A DNA stretch of 45,753 bases from Craspedostauros australis (lineage: Eukaryota): NCBI GenBank assembly GCA_030167865.1, contig JALAGF010005881.1, forward strand, positions 1 through 45,753, written 5' to 3'. The notes beneath the pieces were generated by a model. That model searched no databases. It worked only from the letters and a program-made list of their open reading frames with translations, and was not told the origin of the DNA. The position numbers were made by a program, and so were the translations under genes. Shown here piece by piece: positions 5,792-45,753 of this stretch (position 1 is the first letter of the stretch; every line of letters starts with the position of its first letter).

Positions 5792-6939
5792 CTAAAGATC
5801 CGAGTTCATGGACGACGCGTCCAGCGATAAGGAGGAGGACGATGCAAACTCATCGTCATCATTCGCGTCGTCGTTGACCGCGCTGCCGCCACGGCATTCG
5901 TTGATGCTGGGTGGCTTGGGACGGTGCAGGCTGAGCTGGATCATGTCGCCGGATCCGCAGAAGGCACCCAAGACCATGGGCTTGCGTGGCGGGTTTACAA
6001 GGGAGTCGGAAGAGGAGGACGAGATCGTGGAAGAAGATCTGGTCAAGCGCGGTGTCCCTGTGCTTGCGGCCGGGTTGACGTCCTGCGGCGCAGTCGCCGG
6101 GGACGACGGTGTCGGCGACGTGATGAGTGGACCATCGGGGTCGGATTCGTTCATGTCGGTTCCGTTTTGGATACTTTCCGGATTTGGCGCGGTGATGTTC
6201 ACGCCGTCGGCGGTGGGAGTGTCAGTGTCAGCGGCAGTGTCGCTGTTGCCATGCATTTCGGCGCTGTCGCTACCGCCAGTGTTGCCTGCACCATTGCTGT
6301 TGCCTGTGCCGCTGTCGTCGGCGGAATCCGGTCCAAAGAGACCGGTGCCATGCTGCCTGGCGGATTGATGACGATTGAGGCGAATATTCTCCTCGGTGTA
6401 CGGGATTGTGCGCAGCTTGAATCGACAGGTTGGACATGTGGCATTACGCTCCAACCATGGCAGGATGCAGGATGAGGAATGGTAGAGATGGCCGCAAGGC
6501 AGCCTGGTGACGAGGCAGCCAGCGTTCATGCTGTCCGCACAGATGAGGCATTCCAAGGCGCCCTGCTGCTGCTTGGGAATTTGCTTGAGGCGCAGGTGCA
6601 GCAGATCGCAAACGATGCGCTTGTCGACATCGTCCGGGGCCGCATTGGGCGTTGGCGTTGGCGATGTGCCGGTATCGGTATTGGCATTGGCATTGGTGTT
6701 GACGTCAGTGTTGGTGCTCACACTTTCGGTTGGTGTGGACGCACTTCTGACGAGCGACCTGGGGATCCGACGGTCGCGGTTGCGACTGCCACTGCGGCTG
6801 GATGTAGCTGCCGATGATGACGAGGGGGAGGATGACAATCGGCGAAGACGAAATAGTCTTGATGGTCTCCTGAGGGAAGATGTCGATAGGCGCCTTGGCA
6901 TTGGTTGTGAAAGCATCTGCGTTTGTTGCTGCTGCTGTG

Positions 6940-7821: not shown

Positions 7822-9106
7822 AGTTGTGAGACGATGGGACGCAATCCAATGCGAGTGGGATGCAATCCAGAAATGGAAGAAGGTGCGATACTTCCTGCGA
7901 TTTGAATGAGCTTTGGTGATGCTCTTGTGATGCTTTTGTGTGCTTTCCGTTTGGCCTCTCAATCAATCGTCGTCCTATCGAGCATTGGGCGACGCGGTGC
8001 GACACGATGGAGCACCTCCAACGATACAGCAGTGGGGATTGTGTGGGATTCGTCGTTGGCACTTCCTGCACTTCGTTGTGTCGCTGCGATGGTTGCTCAC
8101 TCCCTTGCTCGCTCACTCTCACTCCGTCTGTTTGATGGCCCGTCCGAACTTGTGGTCGTGCAACGTGTGACCTTCCCAATGCGATTGTATGGAAGGTTGA
8201 TTGGCTTCCTTCCGTCTTTCTCAACTCCCTCTCGCAGAACAGAAGAAAAACAAATGAACGCGTCGCAGTCATCATGTCTGCGCATCATTGTGTGATGTCA
8301 TCTCGATGATTCATGGAGCAAATGTTTCGCGTCGCAGCGCAGGCGCGTAATTCGCCGCAGTCCACCCGTGCCAAATTCCCACGGTCAACAAAGTCCGTGC
8401 GGACAACCGCCACATTCGGAACAATGCCGTGACGCGCCGGGCCATATCAAGAAATGTCAATGACACAATTCCTACGACCAGAAAACTCCGTTTGTCGCCA
8501 TTCGAAAATCGACTAACATGACTACCATGATTTAATCGTGCTTGTGTTTCGCTTTGGCGCCATTCTTATCCGTCTGGCCGTCTTCCGCAATGATACCAAC
8601 AACCAATCCCCACAAAACCGTCGTTGCGTTCTCCCTTCTCTCTCTTCTCTTCGTCTGTTGTGGACAGAGCATCAGAGATACGGGTGCTGCGCGAGTTGCA
8701 ACCAGATAGGCGGCAGCTGCATCATGCCGGGGCGTGTGGAGAGTTGATGCCGAAGCGAGAAGCAACAATCGGTCAGGACGCTCGACAGGAGATTAGCACA
8801 CGGCAAGAGATAGGGCAAGTGGGAACAACAAACAGCAGGAAGAATCCAATCGAGTTGTTCTGAACAGAGACCAGTGAACGCCGATTTCGGAGTTCGAAGA
8901 AGACTGTGCGACTGGCATGGAACTGAAAGTGGGAGTGGACATTCGAAAGCAGCACGAAGATATCATCAGTGGAGGGCCATACACTCGACTACTATCAAGT
9001 ATTACATCATAATACCTTGCTGCAAACAAGACAGGCGCTCGGACCATTGACAAGAACGGCTTCGCAGCAATAACACAACACAGCAACAGCACAACACAGC
9101 ACAATC

Positions 9107-11638: not shown

Positions 11639-12374
11639 CTTGTCTGTCTTTCTTTGATGTCTTGTTTGCGGCAGAGAACTTGGGAGTGTTGTGGGGAGTT
11701 GCGATTGTGGACGTGGCGATCATTCAGTCGCAGGTCGCTCTCTTCTTGGTGGGATTCATGCGCATTGCTGTTGTTGGTGGCAAACAGCGCAAGCAACGCG
11801 TGACTGTTCTCGTTGACGCCCTGCCGAAGAATCCTTCGTTGCGTTGCGAATCTCCCCATGATTTCCAGTCGTCGTTGCCGCACAAGTCCTCTTGTCCACG
11901 ATCGTGGAGTTTCGTGGTCATCGTCTTGTGGCCACAACAGCAATGACGCCGTCGCTAAATTCCGAATTCCAAATTCTGCTGATGTTTCAGTCCATGTAGT
12001 CAATGATGGCCTGGCGCCAATTTGCGCCGACTTGCATGTCACACCGTGACAACATCAACCACACAACAAACATCACGAAAGATACGTTTTGTGTCACCAT
12101 GATGGCGCAAATGCCAGACGCACATTGATGTTCTGCGACAGGGTCCCGATCCACCAACAGTAAGGCGACAGTTGGATTGGGCTACTCTACACCGCATCCA
12201 CTCTCTGCTCTTCATAGTCGTAGTCGTACCAAACTTTGGTCGTATTCCGCAGCACATCAGCGTGATTCTCACAGTACGAGTACAGATCGCACACGTGCCA
12301 ATAAAGCATAATATTCCATTCTATTAGACAGTATAGCACAATAATCTCGTGCCAGTGGGTCGTACACTAACGGC

Positions 12375-37906: not shown

Positions 37907-40087
37907 ATGCCAAAGTCCAAATCACTCAAACGCGATAAGCCGGTGACGAGCTCGCTGAAGAGCGCGCTCAATCGTGCCCCTGCCTCCGACAAGGATGGTG
38001 CCGCCTCGGCAGCCGGTTCAACCGATGGACCTGACTTCATCGCCTCCAAGAAATGGCAAGGTGCCAAGCCTGGCTACTTCTTTGGAACCAACAACCGAAA
38101 GACGGGATACTACAAGGACGTCAACGATCCATCAGCAGCATCCACACAAGCAGGAGGGGCCTCCAAAAAGAGGAGCGTGCAGATCATGGAAGATCAGAAC
38201 GAGCTGCACCTCATCCCTCGCAAACCGCTCACGGGGAAGGAGCTCCTGGAACAGGCCGAGAAGGAGAATGCCTCCAGCGTCGTGCTGGACCTCACACCCA
38301 AGGGATTGCGGTCGGCCACGAACGCCCTCGTCAAGCTCAGCAACAAGAACATCCAGCAACGATCGCAGTACGCCGACGAACCCAAGATGTACATGGAGAG
38401 CGAGCTCAATCTCTACGATCACATCACGTCACTCAAGGCAGTGGCCGCGGCCAACGCGCAGCTGTATCAGAGCATCAGCACCAATGAGAAGCTCCTGTCC
38501 ACCCTGCTGCAGCTGCTGGGACATGACAACACCGATATCGCGTCGTCCGTCACGTCCTTGCTGCTGGAATGGTTGGATCCCGCGTTGCTCACCACCTTTG
38601 AGGAGGCTGGTGCGGATCGCAGCGTCATTCTCAACGTTCTGTCGACGCTGTGCAAGCGGGTTCTGGAAGATTCGTGGGAGACTATCGTGATCAACCTGCA
38701 ACGATTTGACAAACCGATCTCACCTTCATCGTCGTCGGATGGCGGCGATGGTGATGAAGACGGAAAGGGCAAGAAGAGCAGTACCGACGATGACGACGAT
38801 GATGCAGAAGACGATGATGAAGACCTGGATGGAATCAGCAACGTCCTGTCATTGATCGAGAATCTTCTCGACATTGACATGATCATTCCGGAAGGAATCT
38901 TCGCGGACGACGACGATGATGATGATGACAACAACAACACGTCGAAGTCCGCAGCCGCATTCATGGTGAAGGAGAGCAAGACGTTGCTGTCGTGGCTCAT
39001 CCAAAAGCTCGACATTCCTCCCAAACGCGCCATTACGGAGAGCACCATGCGGTACATGGAGATCACCACCATTCTTTCGCAGCGGCAGGATGTGCATGCG
39101 GTGGTCGCGGATTGGTCCAAGCTGCCCAAGAGCAACAGGTCGCCCGACGTTCACGTCATCCCCCACGAACGTCCCGGTAAGAAGGTGAGGATCGCGAAGG
39201 AGGATGCCGAAGATGCAGAGTCAGCCTTTGTCAACGGCATCGAGATCATGCTGCAGGCCATCGGACGCTTCCGAAAGAACCAGCCCAGCAACGAAGATGA
39301 GATTGACTACCTCGAGAATGTCTGCACCACGCTATGCTGCTGCCTGTCCTTCTCGAAAACCAACGACAACATGGAGGCCTTCCTTGAAGGTCAGGGCATC
39401 GAGCTGATCGTCAAATGCCTCAAGGAGCGCACGCACGCGGGAGGTTGCGGACTCAAGCTGCTGGACTTCTTTGGCAGCAGCGACGTGCACCAAAAGGCGT
39501 GCGAGCATCTCGTTGTGGCCGGCGGTCTCAAGTACGTCTTCCCCCTCTTCATGGCTACGCGCGCACCCAAACAGGCGCTGGAATCCAAAAAGTCCAAGGC
39601 CAAACGCAGCTGGTTGCACATGCTGCAGACCCAGATCGTGCGCGTCATGTACGCTCTCACGCGCCATCTCACGGAGGATTCACCGCAGGATGCGCAATCT
39701 CGATTCGTTGCCAAGTTCGTCGACGACAAGAACAAGTGCGACCAGCTCGTGGATCTGCTGATAACGTACGATCAGAAAGCCCGCAAGGCGGAGTACGACT
39801 TTTACCGATCCGATGTGGAAGAGGACATGGCGGAGCAGTCCATCCTGGAACTGGCAGCGCTGGAGGCCAAGCTGAAGGGCGGCGGCGAGATCTTTCACCG
39901 TCTGGGCGCCATCGCTGCCTTCCTGTGCGTGCATTCCAAGCGCTGTCATGAGAACATCGTGTCGCAGCTGCGGTTGCAGCAGTCCGGCATCAGCATCATC
40001 AAGGCGGCGTTGGAGGAGTTCATTTCGGTCATCAGCGACGGGGTCCAGCAGAAAAAGCAGCTGAAATCGTATTTGGATCAGTTGTAG
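37907..40087 (+). CDS. CTNNBL1: Beta-catenin-like protein 1 (PRP19 complex-associated)
   Basis: YADEPKMYMESEL, LLQLLGHDNTDIA, NGIEIMLQAI..F.K..P..E.DYLEN, FLEGQGIEL, GGLKYVFPLFM. Confidence 0.92.
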   Translation: MPKSKSLKRDKPVTSSLKSALNRAPASDKDGAASAAGSTDGPDFIASKKWQGAKPGYFFGTNNRKTGYYKDVNDPSAASTQAGGASKKRSVQIMEDQNELHLIPRKPLTGKELLEQAEKENASSVVLDLTPKGLRSATNALVKLSNKNIQQRSQYADEPKMYMESELNLYDHITSLKAVAAANAQLYQSISTNEKLLSTLLQLLGHDNTDIASSVTSLLLEWLDPALLTTFEEAGADRSVILNVLSTLCKRVLEDSWETIVINLQRFDKPISPSSSSDGGDGDEDGKGKKSSTDDDDDDAEDDDEDLDGISNVLSLIENLLDIDMIIPEGIFADDDDDDDDNNNTSKSAAAFMVKESKTLLSWLIQKLDIPPKRAITESTMRYMEITTILSQRQDVHAVVADWSKLPKSNRSPDVHVIPHERPGKKVRIAKEDAEDAESAFVNGIEIMLQAIGRFRKNQPSNEDEIDYLENVCTTLCCCLSFSKTNDNMEAFLEGQGIELIVKCLKERTHAGGCGLKLLDFFGSSDVHQKACEHLVVAGGLKYVFPLFMATRAPKQALESKKSKAKRSWLHMLQTQIVRVMYALTRHLTEDSPQDAQSRFVAKFVDDKNKCDQLVDLLITYDQKARKAEYDFYRSDVEEDMAEQSILELAALEAKLKGGGEIFHRLGAIAAFLCVHSKRCHENIVSQLRLQQSGISIIKAALEEFISVISDGVQQKKQLKSYLDQL

Positions 40088-40726
40088 AATAGTTATGTGG
40101 ACTACCTACTCGGAAGTACGTGCGCATATTACACCGGGCGACTCCTCCATTCTCTCTCTGAAGAGAGAGAGAGAGTGAGAGGAGTGGAAATGGACAATCT
40201 CCACAGTTGGTAACAGATGGGTGTGGCGTCACGATCAGAGTACTGCCTTCGTAAGAATGCAATCGCTCTCTCTAGAGTATGTTTCATTTCGGGAAAGATG
40301 CAACTGCTGCATTGTTGTTGATGTGTGGATTCTACCTGTCGAGTACTTATTTCGCGAGTTGCGCTGGCTCTGCAGTTTGCACCATTTCGCCGCAAAATCT
40401 TTTCGATAATAATCCACAGTTTGGATCTGTGTGATGTTTGCACTGTCTGGGTAGATGTAGTTCTGCATTAACATCTCGACGAGTTGGACTGCTCGCATGC
40501 TGATGCTTTGCTATGACTTGCTTTGCGGGAGAATCAAGCCTGCGAAGGTCGTTGAAGGGACAGAAGCAGAGAGGTGGATTGTTAGCCTTTCGCCTGTGTC
40601 GTCGAGAGACCGAGTGAAGTTGTATAGTGGTAGAGTTGAACACTTCGCAGAATAGTTTGCGATGCCGTAGTGAGAGTGCTCGACGTGGCATCTAGATTGC
40701 ACCCACATCAAAGTCATGTTCCCATA

Positions 40727-40756
40727 CTCACTCACTCACTCACTCACTCACTCACA
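40727..40756. repeat. (CACT)n microsatellite
   Basis: About 7 units in the 3' flank of the 40796 gene. Confidence 0.85.
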
Positions 40757-40795
40757 CGTACTCTAGCACATGCACACGCACACACGGCCACCATC

Positions 40796-41518
40796 TCAGG
40801 AGGCCTCTTTCTTCTCCTGCTGCTTCCGCCGGATGCCATCCGTTACGCCTTTGACGCCTGCCAACGTGCTGAACCCGATGTACGCATAGAAGATGCCTTC
40901 ACCCACCTTGTTGGGACCCTTCTTCGCATCGATGACGACCCACTTGTTGCCGTCGTTCCAACGGATGCCATCCTGATCCTCGAAACCGAGCGTCGTCTTG
41001 ACAGAGTTGGCTGGCTCCCAAACGCCTTCGTGAATGCCATCGCCGACGCTGACGCGGTTGCCATCCAACACGAAGCCATCGAAGGCACCCTGCCGTAGGC
41101 CAAAGTCCTTGATCTCCTGCGGCGTGCAGCCGCGCAGCACCGTGTCGCCCTTGGGACCCACGGCAGTGCCGCTGTAGTGGAAGGTCTTGCCATCTGCGGC
41201 CACCTCGATCTTGCGTTCGCACAGCGGATGCAAGGGATCGGCATAGTTGTGATTGAGGACAGTCGCATCATCGGCTGCTGCGGCTGGCGAACTGGCGGCT
41301 CCCATCATGCAGGCTGCCAGGAATGCCGAAGCTGCGGCCCTGGTGCATGTCGCCACTATGGAATCCTTGGGTTGGTGTTGCTGCTTGTGCTTCTGATTCT
41401 GCATGGCGTTGCCTCGGCTTGATGCGCTGCCAGGAGTTGGCATCTGCAGTGCAGCACATGGAGACGTCAAGGCGACGACTGTCGCTGCACACATCAACTG
41501 AAATCCGACACACCTCAT
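40796..41518 (-). CDS. Hypothetical plastid (probably thylakoid-lumen-facing) protein with C-terminal TM helix
   Basis: Signal peptide (..CAA-LQ), transit-like segment, second hydrophobic stretch ending AAAA-DD, mature domain NYADPLHPLCERKI..IRWNDGNKW, then TM helix and basic tail. Confidence 0.8.
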   Translation of the reverse strand: MRCVGFQLMCAATVVALTSPCAALQMPTPGSASSRGNAMQNQKHKQQHQPKDSIVATCTRAAASAFLAACMMGAASSPAAAADDATVLNHNYADPLHPLCERKIEVAADGKTFHYSGTAVGPKGDTVLRGCTPQEIKDFGLRQGAFDGFVLDGNRVSVGDGIHEGVWEPANSVKTTLGFEDQDGIRWNDGNKWVVIDAKKGPNKVGEGIFYAYIGFSTLAGVKGVTDGIRRKQQEKKEAS

Positions 41519-41553
41519 CTTCTCAATCGATCGTAGAGTATTGGTATTGGCTT

Positions 41554-41578
41554 TGTATTGTATTGTATTGTATTGTAT
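41554..41578. repeat. (TGTAT)n microsatellite at the retroelement 5' junction
   Basis: Five consecutive TGTAT units. Confidence 0.85.
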
Positions 41579-41836
41579 AATATTTGGTACGAAGGCACAG
41601 TAATGTATCTTGGTTGAACCTATCCACACTTGCAAACGCGAAGAATGTATTGATTCCAGTCCCGCACGTGACCCGACTGACCGGCGTACGCAAAGTGCGC
41701 ACCTCGCGCCCACTTTCCTCCTAGAGCAGATCAAGACACTAGCAGGAGCCAAGACCGCAACTCCTCAGCTCAGCAATGTAATATCTCATAATATTAGCGA
41801 ACAACATTGATTCACACACTACTCGTCTTATTGACA
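41574..41836 (+). repeat. Putative 5' LTR (~263 bp, TG...CA)
   Basis: Inferred from TGT at 41574 and ACA ending at 41836 next to a PBS-position element. No second LTR is available for comparison, so boundaries are tentative. Confidence 0.55.
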
Positions 41837-41904
41837 GTTGTTCGCTAATAGCCAACGTTTGAAAATCTCGGTCACCAAGACCAGCATCACCAAAAATCAT
41901 CACC

Positions 41905-43068
41905 ATGGCCAACAGCCACGAGAAGATCCTCGCCACCTTTCCACAGGCAATCGTCGAACCCATCGTCGGGGTACCCACATACGAGTCCATCGCAGAACTC
42001 AATGTAGTCCTCAACGCCAATGCGGCCTCGGTGCACTGCCCCCTCGGAAACGGTCAGCTTGGATACCTGGTCCTCACCGTCTCCCGAGAGGTGTACCAAG
42101 AACATTCGGCGACAGCATTCGTCGTGCCGGTCAACCCAGGACCACACCCGAACATCCCGAACGCAGCCACTGCAGCCCAGATCAGCGCCGCCACCAGCAT
42201 CCACAAGGAACAGGAGCGCCTTTGGAGAGAGTACCGCGCGGTCGACAATGCCCTCAAGCAACAGCTTCTTGGCGCCATTGAAGACCAATACGTGCGAACT
42301 CTCCGCCACAACATCGTCGGCTACGCCAATGTCACGACACTCGAGCTGCTGACCCACCTGTACTCCACGTATGGCAAGATCACACCACAAGACCTCGACG
42401 AAAACGACAAGGCCATGAAGACCCCGTACGATCCGACGGCGCCGTTCGAAGTGCTCGTCGCCCAAATCGAATCTGCGCGCGATCTTGCGGCTGCTGCCAA
42501 AGCACCGTACGCAGATCACCAGCTCGTCACCACGGCGTACAACCTGGTGTTCCGAACACAAGCGTTCCCCGAAGCATGCCGCTCTTTCCGCGCTCTCAGT
42601 GCCGCCGACAAGACATGGGCTCGCTTCAAGAAGGACTTCGCTGCAGCTCACCAAGACCTCCGCGAGTCGCAAGCCACGGCGACGGGAGCCAACTTCCAAG
42701 GAGCCAATGCGGCAATCACCGCCACTGAAACCGCAGACGCGCTCGCCAACCTCGCATCCGCAACGGCCGCGGATCGCAGCACCGTAGCACAGCTCACCGA
42801 GAGCAACGCCAACCTCGTCAAGCAGTTGTCGGAGATCACGGCAATGGTGTCCCAGCTGCAAGCCAATGCGGCCACAAGCGGCGGCACAGGAAGCAAGAAG
42901 GGAGGGCGCAAGCACAAGCACAACTCCTACTGCTGGACACACGGGTACAAGGTGGGCGTCACGCACACCAGCGCAACGTGCATGAACCCAGCACCAGGAC
43001 ACAAGAAGGAGGCCACTCGCAACAACACGATGGGAGGATCCACCGAAGGCGCCCCGACGAACGCGTGA
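41905..43068 (+). CDS. gag: Gag with atypical C-x2-H-x7-H-x4-C knuckle
   Basis: 387 aa ORF with LGNGQLGYLVL, GYANVT..LLTHL..YG and YCWTHG..HTSATC, directly upstream of the protease. Confidence 0.9.
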   Translation: MANSHEKILATFPQAIVEPIVGVPTYESIAELNVVLNANAASVHCPLGNGQLGYLVLTVSREVYQEHSATAFVVPVNPGPHPNIPNAATAAQISAATSIHKEQERLWREYRAVDNALKQQLLGAIEDQYVRTLRHNIVGYANVTTLELLTHLYSTYGKITPQDLDENDKAMKTPYDPTAPFEVLVAQIESARDLAAAAKAPYADHQLVTTAYNLVFRTQAFPEACRSFRALSAADKTWARFKKDFAAAHQDLRESQATATGANFQGANAAITATETADALANLASATAADRSTVAQLTESNANLVKQLSEITAMVSQLQANAATSGGTGSKKGGRKHKHNSYCWTHGYKVGVTHTSATCMNPAPGHKKEATRNNTMGGSTEGAPTNA

Positions 43069-45720
43069 CAAGCGCGGCAGGACCACAGTAAGCAAGTAGC
43101 ACTCTCTGTTACTACTTCATCATCCTGTGCTCCTGCCCTCGCCATAGTTGACTCTGGTTGCACTAGTCATTTCCTACGGCCTGAAGATCCATGCATTGGC
43201 CAAACACCCGACGATAACCCATTATCGGTGTCGCTGCCCGACGGATCCAACATCCAATCTTCCCACCGAGCCACGGTCAGCATTGCCAATGTACCGCAGC
43301 ATGCGTGCACCGCGCGAGTTTTTCCACAACTTTCCAGCGCGGCGCTTGTGTCGGTGGGGCAACTGTGTGACCACGGCATGACAGTTGACTTCGACCAAGA
43401 ATCCGTGAGAATTCGAAAAAACGGAAACACGATTCATACCGGTTGTCGGCATCAAGTTGACGGCATGTATCGCATCGACATCCAGCCGCCGAAGCCCACA
43501 TCGCCAAAACTGGCCAATCACGTCCATCACACGTCAACCAAGATGGAACTGGCCAAATATTACCACCAGTGCTGCTTCAGCCCCGCGGTATCCACGTTCA
43601 CGGCTGCCATCAAGAAAGGATTCTTTTCATCTTGGCCCGGACTGACCGAGCAATTGGTGCGAAAATTCCTTCCACCCTCAACGGCAACTGCAGCTGGGCA
43701 CCTACGCCAACAGTACCAGAACACGCAGTCCACGCGCAGTCACTGTAACCACGTCACCCAGTCCACCAAGAATCCCACGGAACAACGCGAGATCTTCATG
43801 GATGTTTATCGGCCAACAGGCAAAATCTTCACCGATCAAACAGGCCGGTTCCCAGTGACGTCAAGCCGTGGATACCAGTACATCATGGTGTTGTACGACC
43901 ATGACTCCAACGCGATTCTTTCACGCCCACTACGCAGTCGGCACGCAACGGAACTCACGCGAGCGTGTGACGAACTTTTGACGGTTCTCCTTCGAAGCGG
44001 AATGACACCGCGATTCCACCGCCTCGACAACGAGGCGCCGAAAGAACTCAAGCACCTCATCGAGTCCAAAGGTATCCAGTACCAGCTTGTACCACCGGGC
44101 ATTCATCGGCGCAACGCAGCGGAGAGAGCCATCTCAACTTGGAAAGACCACTTCATCGCAGGACTGGCCACAGCCGACGAAGCATTTCCGCTGCATCTAT
44201 GGTGTCAACTCCTCCCCCAATGCGACATCACACTCAACCTGATGCGACCGTCGCGAGTCAACCCGCACATTTCGGCACATCATGCCCTCCACGGCAACTT
44301 CGACTTCAACGCAACGCCAATGGCACCACCAGGCACCAAGGCCGTCATCCATGACAAACCCAGCAAGCGAGCCACATGGGCACCACACGGATCAGCCGGA
44401 TGGTACATAGCACCAGCACTCGAACACTACCGGTGCTACAAGGTGTATTGCAACAAAACGAGGACGATCCGGATCACAGACACCATCGAACTGATGCCAA
44501 GCAAATGCGCCATGCCCACACCAACCAACGCAGAGATGGCCATCAAGGCGGCAGGCGACCTCGCCACTGCACTCACCAAGCCATGCGCACCACTCCAGTC
44601 CATTGGCGACGAGCAACTCGGAGCACTCCGGCAGCTCAGCGACATCTTCCAGCAGGCGCTCCCCGCGACGCCCACAGCACCACTTCCAAGGGTGCACACC
44701 GAGCCACCTCCGAGGGTGCTCACCACGGCCAGCAGTGACACCAGCAGCAAACGCGTCACCTTCGCGACACCGGCGCGCACACCTCCGAGGGTGCCCCAAA
44801 ACACACCGCAAGTCACAGACGACGAAGCCGACTCCGAACCAGAATCGGACGACGATGACGACGACGACGACGACGGCGACGACAGCGCCAACACGGGAGC
44901 ACCTCCCACAGGCCATACCAAGACGGCACCACGCACACGACTGCGCACCGGCACCATCCAGCGCAAGCAGTGGGCACGCGGAGCCACCACCGCAAACGCA
45001 GTCATCGACGAACGCACGGGGACAGCATACGAATACCGGCACCTCATCGCTGGCAAGGTTCATGGCCACACCCCGCAACAATGGTACACATCCTTCGCCA
45101 ACGAGATCGGGCGTCTCGCACAAGGCGTCGGGACCCGCATCCCAGCATCGGCGGCAACCAACACCATCTTCTTCGTCCCAAGATCGGCAGTGCCACGAGA
45201 TCGCACCGTCACATACGGCCGCATTGTCTGCGCCGTGCGACCGCAAAAAGCAGAAACACATCGCACGCGCCTCACCGTAGGAGGCAATCTCATCGATTAC
45301 CCCTTCGACGTGCACACACCCACCGCCGAACTCACCACTGCAAAATGTTTGTTCAACAGCGTCGTCTCCACACCGAATGCGAGGTTCATGACCATCGACA
45401 TCAAGGATTTTTATCTGAACACCGAAATGGACAGATACGAATACATGCGAATGCCGATGACAATGCTGCCACCAGAGATCGTCGAACAATACCAGCTTCG
45501 GAACTTGGAACACAACGGCAACGTCTACGTCGAAGTGCGAAAGGGCATGTACGGGCTGCCACAGGCGGGCAAAATCGCAAATGTGAAGCTCCAAAAACAC
45601 CTCGCGAAATTCGGGTACAGGCCAGTCCCACACACTCCAGGATTGTGGAAACACGACTGCAGACCCATCACATTAGAGGCCTATCGCATTTCACATTGGG
45701 AGTCCCACGGTACAAAATAA
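43069..45720 (+). CDS. pol: Pol (protease-integrase-partial RT), in frame with gag after a single TGA
   Basis: PR AIVDSGCTSHF. IN DDE: FTDQTGRFP, LDNEA, HRRNAAERAI. RT DIKDFYL and KGMYGLPQAG. RT similarity stops at about 45674. Confidence 0.92.
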   Translation, partial: QARQDHSKQVALSVTTSSSCAPALAIVDSGCTSHFLRPEDPCIGQTPDDNPLSVSLPDGSNIQSSHRATVSIANVPQHACTARVFPQLSSAALVSVGQLCDHGMTVDFDQESVRIRKNGNTIHTGCRHQVDGMYRIDIQPPKPTSPKLANHVHHTSTKMELAKYYHQCCFSPAVSTFTAAIKKGFFSSWPGLTEQLVRKFLPPSTATAAGHLRQQYQNTQSTRSHCNHVTQSTKNPTEQREIFMDVYRPTGKIFTDQTGRFPVTSSRGYQYIMVLYDHDSNAILSRPLRSRHATELTRACDELLTVLLRSGMTPRFHRLDNEAPKELKHLIESKGIQYQLVPPGIHRRNAAERAISTWKDHFIAGLATADEAFPLHLWCQLLPQCDITLNLMRPSRVNPHISAHHALHGNFDFNATPMAPPGTKAVIHDKPSKRATWAPHGSAGWYIAPALEHYRCYKVYCNKTRTIRITDTIELMPSKCAMPTPTNAEMAIKAAGDLATALTKPCAPLQSIGDEQLGALRQLSDIFQQALPATPTAPLPRVHTEPPPRVLTTASSDTSSKRVTFATPARTPPRVPQNTPQVTDDEADSEPESDDDDDDDDDGDDSANTGAPPTGHTKTAPRTRLRTGTIQRKQWARGATTANAVIDERTGTAYEYRHLIAGKVHGHTPQQWYTSFANEIGRLAQGVGTRIPASAATNTIFFVPRSAVPRDRTVTYGRIVCAVRPQKAETHRTRLTVGGNLIDYPFDVHTPTAELTTAKCLFNSVVSTPNARFMTIDIKDFYLNTEMDRYEYMRMPMTMLPPEIVEQYQLRNLEHNGNVYVEVRKGMYGLPQAGKIANVKLQKHLAKFGYRPVPHTPGLWKHDCRPITLEAYRISHWESHGTK

Positions 45721-45753
45721 CCTGATAATGACATTTTTAGAGGGGCAACATGC

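Follow-up and report, generated by a model that had tools for sequence, protein, structure and literature searches.

Self-priming of reverse transcription has been shown experimentally for the Tf1 and Tf2 elements of Schizosaccharomyces pombe and is inferred for the Tf1/sushi group of Ty3/gypsy elements. To our knowledge, it is proven only for Tf1-type gypsy elements. In Tf1, according to the accessible text of PMC7175516, the 11 bases at the 5′ end anneal to the primer site, and the RNase H cut falls between bases 11 and 12. Self-priming has also been predicted for the plant Ty1/copia lineage TAR, which includes Houba and Osr-1 (accessible text of PMC6317226), and for Houba and Osr-1 it had been proposed earlier (Capy 2005, as cited in PMC6317226). 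A sequence-only reading of the locus analyzed here had contrasted Tf1 and related gypsy elements, as self-primed by their own 5′ bases, with copia elements, as tRNA-primed. The statement on Tf1 agrees with the published description (PMC7175516), whereas the premise on copia elements is incomplete because self-priming is already in print for the plant TAR lineage (PMC6317226).

Two further groups of Ty1/copia elements are relevant. The fungal GalEa elements have no tRNA primer site and carry a Conserved Hairpin Site at that position (PMC5445492). According to the accessible text of the same source, both arms of this hairpin are located 3′ of the LTR, and at its start is a 9-bp palindrome in which the last A of the LTR takes part. 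The authors of that source detected no complementary stretch in U5 and reported that the Tf1 model does not apply. The CoDi elements of diatoms (Maumus et al. 2009) have LTRs of 153 to 844 bp, whose ends are TG/CA in most families, and their gag and pol are separated by no more than one stop or frameshift, as far as described in the accessible text of PMC2806351. Priming is not treated in the main text of that paper, where the sole "PBS" is a buffer. A literature search of openly available main texts found nothing that ties self-priming to diatom copia elements. Here we describe a copia element, located in a DNA stretch of 45,753 nt (hereafter the window), in which the nucleotides immediately 3′ of the LTR are the complement of a segment inside the LTR itself.

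A truncated copia element and the sequence at its LTR end

The window carries the 5′ part of a truncated Ty1/copia element, with gag, an in-frame TGA, and a broken pol (Table 1). The gag product has 274 homologues at E ≤ 0.001, the best of which is about 50% identical, and no Pfam family was found for gag. In the pol product, a DSG protease motif is followed by an integrase-like region and then by RVT_2, for which the match is weak (25.8 bits, below the Pfam cut-off of 31.6). This product is 40% identical over 827 aa to the pol (1196 aa) of L032, a complete relative, which has an RVT_2 match above the Pfam cut-off (44.9 bits, residues 786–905 of 1196). The assignment to the copia type therefore follows from the position of the integrase before RT, the weak RVT_2 match, and the identity to a pol whose RVT_2 match passes. 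No Pfam match for RNase H was obtained in the pol of the window or of L032. In 28 of the 30 elements checked (that of the window included), TGA, mostly followed by C, is the stop met first in frame, and in 13 of the 30 pol is open for more than 300 aa behind the gag TGA in the same frame (the TGA of L032 is at 8287–8289). Judged by this pattern of stops, the gag TGA looks like programmed UGA read-through for Gag-Pol.

The DNA upstream of the element contains an ordinary host gene of eukaryotic type, a 726-aa ORF at 37907–40087 (+) whose match to the CTNNBL (beta-catenin-like protein 1) domain is strong (225 bits). An Atlas search with this gene returned clusters from animals and plants only. 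An expressed gene at 40500–41541 (−) contains an intron at 40539–40905 (GT..AG on the minus strand), which is missing from a contig of sequencing run X1 that is otherwise identical to the window. For this reason, X1 is taken to be RNA-derived and to come from the same organism. No Pfam match was found for the ORF at 40796–41752 (−). A TGTAT microsatellite (41542–41588), passed over as a repeat in the X1 comparison, separates the minus-strand gene from the LTR. Run X1 contains 0.04 of the sampled words, and no X1 contig lies over 41838–45673, which is uninformative on expression.

At its other end, the pol of the window stops at about residue 829 of the L032 pol, and approximately 370 aa, the rest of RT and RNase H, are missing. 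Other high-depth X1 contigs match 45674–45753, after the pol break at about 45673, which suggests that the DNA from 45674 onward is another repeated or expressed sequence, or an assembly joint. Because pol stops at this residue and other contigs join from 45674, we conclude that the element is truncated and that its 3′ LTR lies outside the window. No second copy of the LTR is present within the window.

The complementary sequences are TATTAGCGAACAAC, inside the LTR, and its exact reverse complement GTTGTTCGCTAATA, which together form a perfect 14-nt inverted repeat with arms 31 nt apart. Arm 2 starts immediately 3′ of ...TTATTGACA, whose last base is 41836, and the primer-site position after the LTR thus reads GTTGTTCGCTAATA, with no TGG there. 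Throughout the 45,753-nt window, this is the sole perfect hairpin of at least 14 nt with a loop of at most 200 nt, and in 100 block shuffles of the window such hairpins numbered 0.01 on average and never more than 1. The folding energy of the RNA from 41780 to 41905 is −23.9 kcal/mol, as compared with −12.7 ± 2.55 kcal/mol for 200 shuffles (z = −4.39). None of the 200 shuffles folds as well, and the minimum-energy structure is the helix between arm 1 and arm 2. The helix is thus confirmed as real, and its occurrence by chance is unlikely. These results bear out the sequence-only reading, which had noted the 14-nt complement with its 31-nt loop, the lack of a TGG-type tRNA primer site (TGG is likewise missing from the 38 sequences aligned below), and the pairing of the 3′ end of the upstream arm beside the terminal CA (C41805 with G41837, a C-G pair in all 38).

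Table 1. Features of the copia element and its 5′ region in window coordinates.
Feature	Position	Strand	Basis or remark
5′ LTR, 191 nt, TGTATTGATTCC...TTATTGACA	41646..41836	+	Start by likeness to relatives; end by X1 contigs and family LTR-end motif
Initiator-like motif CTCATAA	41785..41791	+	Predicted start at T 41789 (inferred)
Arm 1, proposed self-primer	41792..41805	+	3′ C 41805 pairs with G 41837; co-varies with arm 2
Loop, 31 nt	41806..41836	+	Between the arms, ends at LTR end; would be rest of R plus U5 and strong-stop template (inferred)
Arm 2, candidate primer-binding site, not tRNA-type	41837..41850	+	Complementary to own LTR; no TGG
Remainder of 5′ untranslated leader	41851..41904	+	Between primer-binding site and gag ATG
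gag, 387 aa, C-terminal Cys/His motif (CWTHGY...C...GH)	41905..43068	+	TGA stop 43066–43068
pol, gag frame behind TGA: protease (DSG), integrase, first part of RT	43069..45673	+	Translation; weak RVT_2 match

The exact end of the LTR matters for this interpretation because the LTR repeat is made by reverse transcription and its 3′ boundary marks the start of the minus strand. Two X1 contigs match the LTR to 41836 and 41837, respectively, and then enter two different, unlike sequences. Three relatives define the same boundary independently. The two LTRs of L032 (6878–6996 and 11877–11995) do not differ from each other and lie between the copies of a TAAAC target duplication. A 13-nt complement of an LTR-internal stretch stands immediately after the 5′ LTR, with unrelated flank after the 3′ LTR. 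In L011 (LTRs 664–888 and 5851–6075), where flank likewise follows the 3′ LTR, no base separates the LTR from arm 2, and in L025 the transition from 3′ LTR to flank fixes the LTR end and again puts the start of arm 2 directly behind it. The 3′ LTR copy of L008 is cut by the contig end, so that only its start is usable. The LTR end proposed previously for the window, 41836, is thus supported both by the branching X1 contigs and by the independently defined ends of L032, L011 and L025. Since arm 2 immediately follows the last base of the LTR repeat, the minus strand must be started at this arm.

The LTR start at 41646 was set from the LTR starts of L044, L011, L019 and L006, directly 3′ of the polypurine tract GCGAGGGTG. 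This tract is nearly invariant directly before the 3′ LTR in relatives (for example, at 11868–11876 in L032). Most relatives have LTRs starting with TGT(T/C)(A/G)AT.., and a subgroup without the TG start has TCACA or TAACA. Relatives have very short LTRs of 119 to 225 nt, with lengths of 119 nt for L032 and 131 nt for L008. Note that one X1 contig is an exact match to 41721–41836 and that its 139 nt upstream of 41721 are unlike the window. For that copy, the divergence at 41721 does not fit an LTR start at 41646; the contig may stem from another LTR copy of that organism, one that is truncated or recombinant.

Pairing of the two arms among related elements

Relatives were retrieved from metagenome contigs with a gag alignment (A2), which yielded 78 loci; a wider alignment (A1, 44 sequences) was too diverse for locus search. 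The layout of the 5′ region was scored for the 49 loci that have the gag N-terminus and at least 120 nt upstream, which leaves out three loci with shorter upstream sequence and L055, which starts inside gag. The same layout is present in 48 of the 49, the exception being L057. In order, it consists of CAT(A/T)A, arm 1 with an end in ..AC or ..TC, a loop of 19 to 71 nt, and arm 2 starting with G. The loops of relatives have TTGTCA, TCATCA, TTGTTA or TTGACA at their 3′ ends. Three groups (L006/L039/L048, L019/L026/L034/L049, and L045) were scored by inspection because a mismatch or a stronger unrelated hairpin caused the automatic search to miss the helix. The layout extends to the distant relatives L056, L060, L062 and L013 (33 to 42% gag identity), which have perfect arms of 10 to 12 nt. 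These four are among nine further loci inspected; of the other five, L041, L058 and L077 have no 5′ region that could be compared, the sequence of L053 is not long enough, and L057 has no such layout.

A search with pol found no relatives in viral contigs. The Atlas cluster similar to the gag of the window is mostly Bacillariophyta among its 6 labelled members, and a cluster look-up of four gag homologues returned no names. The clade, large and mostly marine, probably takes in diatom elements. Some of its members share a leader motif, GCCTCTCGAACGC, which was found in 15 to 17 of 37 distinct relatives and is missing from the element of the window. Most often there are two copies, spaced by about 20 nt, and L046 has four (examples are L032 6997–7059 and L046 2950–3089).

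Compensatory change was assessed in an alignment (A3) of 38 distinct sequences, window included, that holds approximately 25 different arm sequences. For the 14-pair helix, 86.3% of cells pair, as compared with 62.5% after shuffling and 17 to 46% when the partner is slid by 1 to 3 columns, and two-sided changes occur in 11 of the 14 pairs; these pair counts lean towards the helix because A3 was cut at fixed offsets from a helix already located, and many of its rows are kin. The covariation score of 0.587 exceeds that of shuffled alignments (0.120), none of 500 of which reached it, as well as those of the slid controls (0.04 to 0.13). RNAalifold, given no structure, recovers 9 pairs of the helix, 8 of which show compensatory changes. 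The junction pair is C-G in all 38 sequences, and the site at arm 2 differs at 13 of its 14 positions.

Two observations reduce the concern about anchoring and kinship. Double changes separate close relatives (L007/L017, L004/L036/L067, and L010/L044), and an unanchored search for perfect Watson-Crick helices of 10 bp was positive for 26 of 39 upstream regions and for none of the 39 gag-coding or the 39 shuffled controls. The complementarity is not perfect everywhere. A.C or A.A mismatches occur at positions 5–6 from the junction in some relatives, even in L011, whose LTRs differ at only 1 of 225 positions. Nevertheless, the compensatory change that the sequence-only reading had proposed to look for across related families was found, in 11 of 14 pairs and with RNAalifold arriving at the same helix. 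To judge from these alignments, the only conserved partner of the arm 2 site is the element's own LTR. Furthermore, because the site has about 25 different sequences, no single host RNA serves all of these elements.

A self-priming model and its alternatives

Given the position and covariation of the two arms, we consider it likely that elements of this clade prime their own reverse transcription in a Tf1-like manner. In the proposed model, transcription would begin within the LTR at the initiator-like CAT(A/T)A, at about 41789 in the window, and the first 15 to 17 nt of the RNA would fold back over a loop of 31 nt (19 to 71 nt in relatives). The last 10 to 14 of these nucleotides would pair with the sequence just after the LTR, which in the window corresponds to the conserved, co-varying complementarity between 41792–41805 and 41837–41850. 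By analogy with Tf1, the element's RNase H would then cut after C41805, and the freed 3′ end, paired at the first post-LTR base, would prime the minus strand through the loop. If the primer remains attached and serves as template when the plus strand is made, each cycle would rewrite the primer site from the primer and thereby keep both arms matched. The pairing of the 3′ C of the arm with the first post-LTR base, seen in 38 of 38 sequences, is the geometry that a primer needs. This position of the junction, together with the compensatory changes, favors the earlier suggestion that a copia lineage may self-prime with a very short R-U5. One consequence of the model counts against it, in that an R plus U5 as short as 19 nt offers little homology for the first strand transfer.

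The predicted transcript start rests on a motif whose distance from the arm is fixed. CAT(A/T)A is found 15 to 17 nt before the 3′ end of arm 1 in 37 of 38 sequences (A3 columns 8–10), the 38th having CACTA, and this spacing is maintained while the loop length varies nearly fourfold, from 19 to 71 nt. An initiator-like consensus of TCAH+1W / CAY+1A has been described for diatoms in the accessible text of PMC4686930, and the CAT(A/T)A of the window and its relatives fits it. This agreement suggests a start at about 41789 rather than at 41792, the position expected from the sequence-only reading, and the predicted primer in the window would accordingly be 17 nt long with its last 14 nt paired. 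A TATA box at CATAAATTAA with a start 25 to 30 nt downstream was also considered. It was rejected because a 19-nt loop would place such a start at the LTR end or past it, with no R remaining.

Conservation and covariation prove a structure and not priming, and the helix might therefore be maintained for some other function of the RNA, for example packaging, dimerization, translation control or presentation of the primer site, with another RNA acting as the primer. Stems formed between U5 and the leader do adjoin primer sites in retroviral leaders, and the self-priming model does not account for the repeated leader motif GCCTCTCGAACGC in the 15 to 17 of 37 relatives that carry it. However, wherever the LTR end is defined, arm 2 starts with the very first post-LTR base. 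The stem thus adjoins U5 too closely to accommodate a separate primer site, and it is the LTR boundary that indicates where the minus strand begins. The approximately 25 different site sequences are also at odds with any single host RNA as the primer, and the invariant C-G pair at the junction (38 of 38) corresponds to the need of a primer 3′ end. For these reasons, we regard a structure with only some other role as unlikely. The more specific proposal that the primer is a host tRNA or half-tRNA, the situation in Drosophila copia and in certain plant copia lineages, with the match to the LTR being secondary, appears highly improbable. A tRNA would hold the site constant, whereas the site differs at 13 of 14 positions and always tracks its own LTR arm. 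TGG starts none of the 38 sites, and Rfam gave no match in 41400–42100. In favor of this proposal, half-tRNA primer sites may start without TGG according to the accessible text of PMC6317226. Searches for tRNA genes in the window and in 26 long loci found none and so offered no tRNA for comparison with the arms. A distal tRNA site at the repeated leader motif GCCTCTCGAACGC was rejected as the primer site because the LTR repeat ends at arm 2 and not at that motif.

A further alternative retains self-priming and changes the source of the primer, in that arm 1 would be supplied by a second packaged RNA or by the 3′ LTR copy in the transcript rather than by fold-back of the RNA's own 5′ end. Arm 1 lies in the LTR and hence would also be near the RNA 3′ end if polyadenylation occurs downstream of it, and use in cis and use in trans look alike in sequence. 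The spacing between initiator and arm nevertheless points to the RNA 5′ end, since it is fixed at 15 to 17 nt against loops of 19 to 71 nt, and the primer described for Tf1 consists of the 11 initial bases of the element itself (PMC7175516, accessible text). We therefore hold self-priming by a route other than the 5′ fold-back to be quite unlikely. Returning to Tf1-like self-priming, its elements can be joined into a single reading, to which we give about an even chance as a whole. In this joint reading, an abundant marine, probably diatom, Ty1/copia clade would dispense with a host tRNA, and its primer would be the capped first 15 to 17 nt of the RNA, set by an initiator at fixed spacing. R plus U5 would span only 19 to 71 nt, and the primer site would be rewritten in each cycle.

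Implications and comparison with described systems

With the clade described here, a rare priming strategy would gain a third setting, in marine-metagenome copia elements, after Tf1-type gypsy and plant TAR copia elements. The approximately 25 matched arm pairs, with loops from 19 to 71 nt, amount to a natural mutational series that could guide tests of the minimal R and U5. Annotation practice may also be affected. A pipeline applied to one diatom genome kept only LTR candidates with a tRNA-type primer site, as described in the accessible text of PMC7466962, and filters that demand such sites could discard elements of this clade. If the model is true, such elements would be invisible both to annotation filters of this kind and to silencing based on tRNA fragments. 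If it is true and the clade is also independent of Tf1/sushi and plant TAR elements, self-priming would either have evolved repeatedly or be ancestral in LTR elements.

Among the described systems, Tf1 resembles the element of the window in having no tRNA primer site and in the size of the helix, which here has 10 conserved pairs and up to 14 in the window. The two differ in superfamily, since the clade of the window has its integrase before RT and an RVT_2 match. In contrast to Tf1, this clade has very short LTRs (119 to 225 nt; 191 nt here) and loops of 19 to 71 nt, and its predicted primer would carry 2 to 4 unpaired 5′ bases. In addition, self-priming in this clade is a prediction from sequence, whereas in Tf1 it has been shown experimentally.

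The plant TAR lineage is closer in classification. It belongs to the same superfamily, and its self-priming, as presented in the accessible text of PMC6317226, is the same kind of sequence-based prediction, but its hosts are green plants. CoDi elements, as far as their published description goes (PMC2806351), resemble the element of the window in being copia elements with short LTRs and at most a single stop or frameshift between gag and pol. GalEa, according to the accessible text of PMC5445492, likewise is a copia element without a tRNA primer site that has a hairpin in its place. However, arm 1 of the window lies inside the LTR, 31 nt upstream, and no palindrome spans the junction. Unlike the GalEa hairpin, this arrangement fits the Tf1 geometry.
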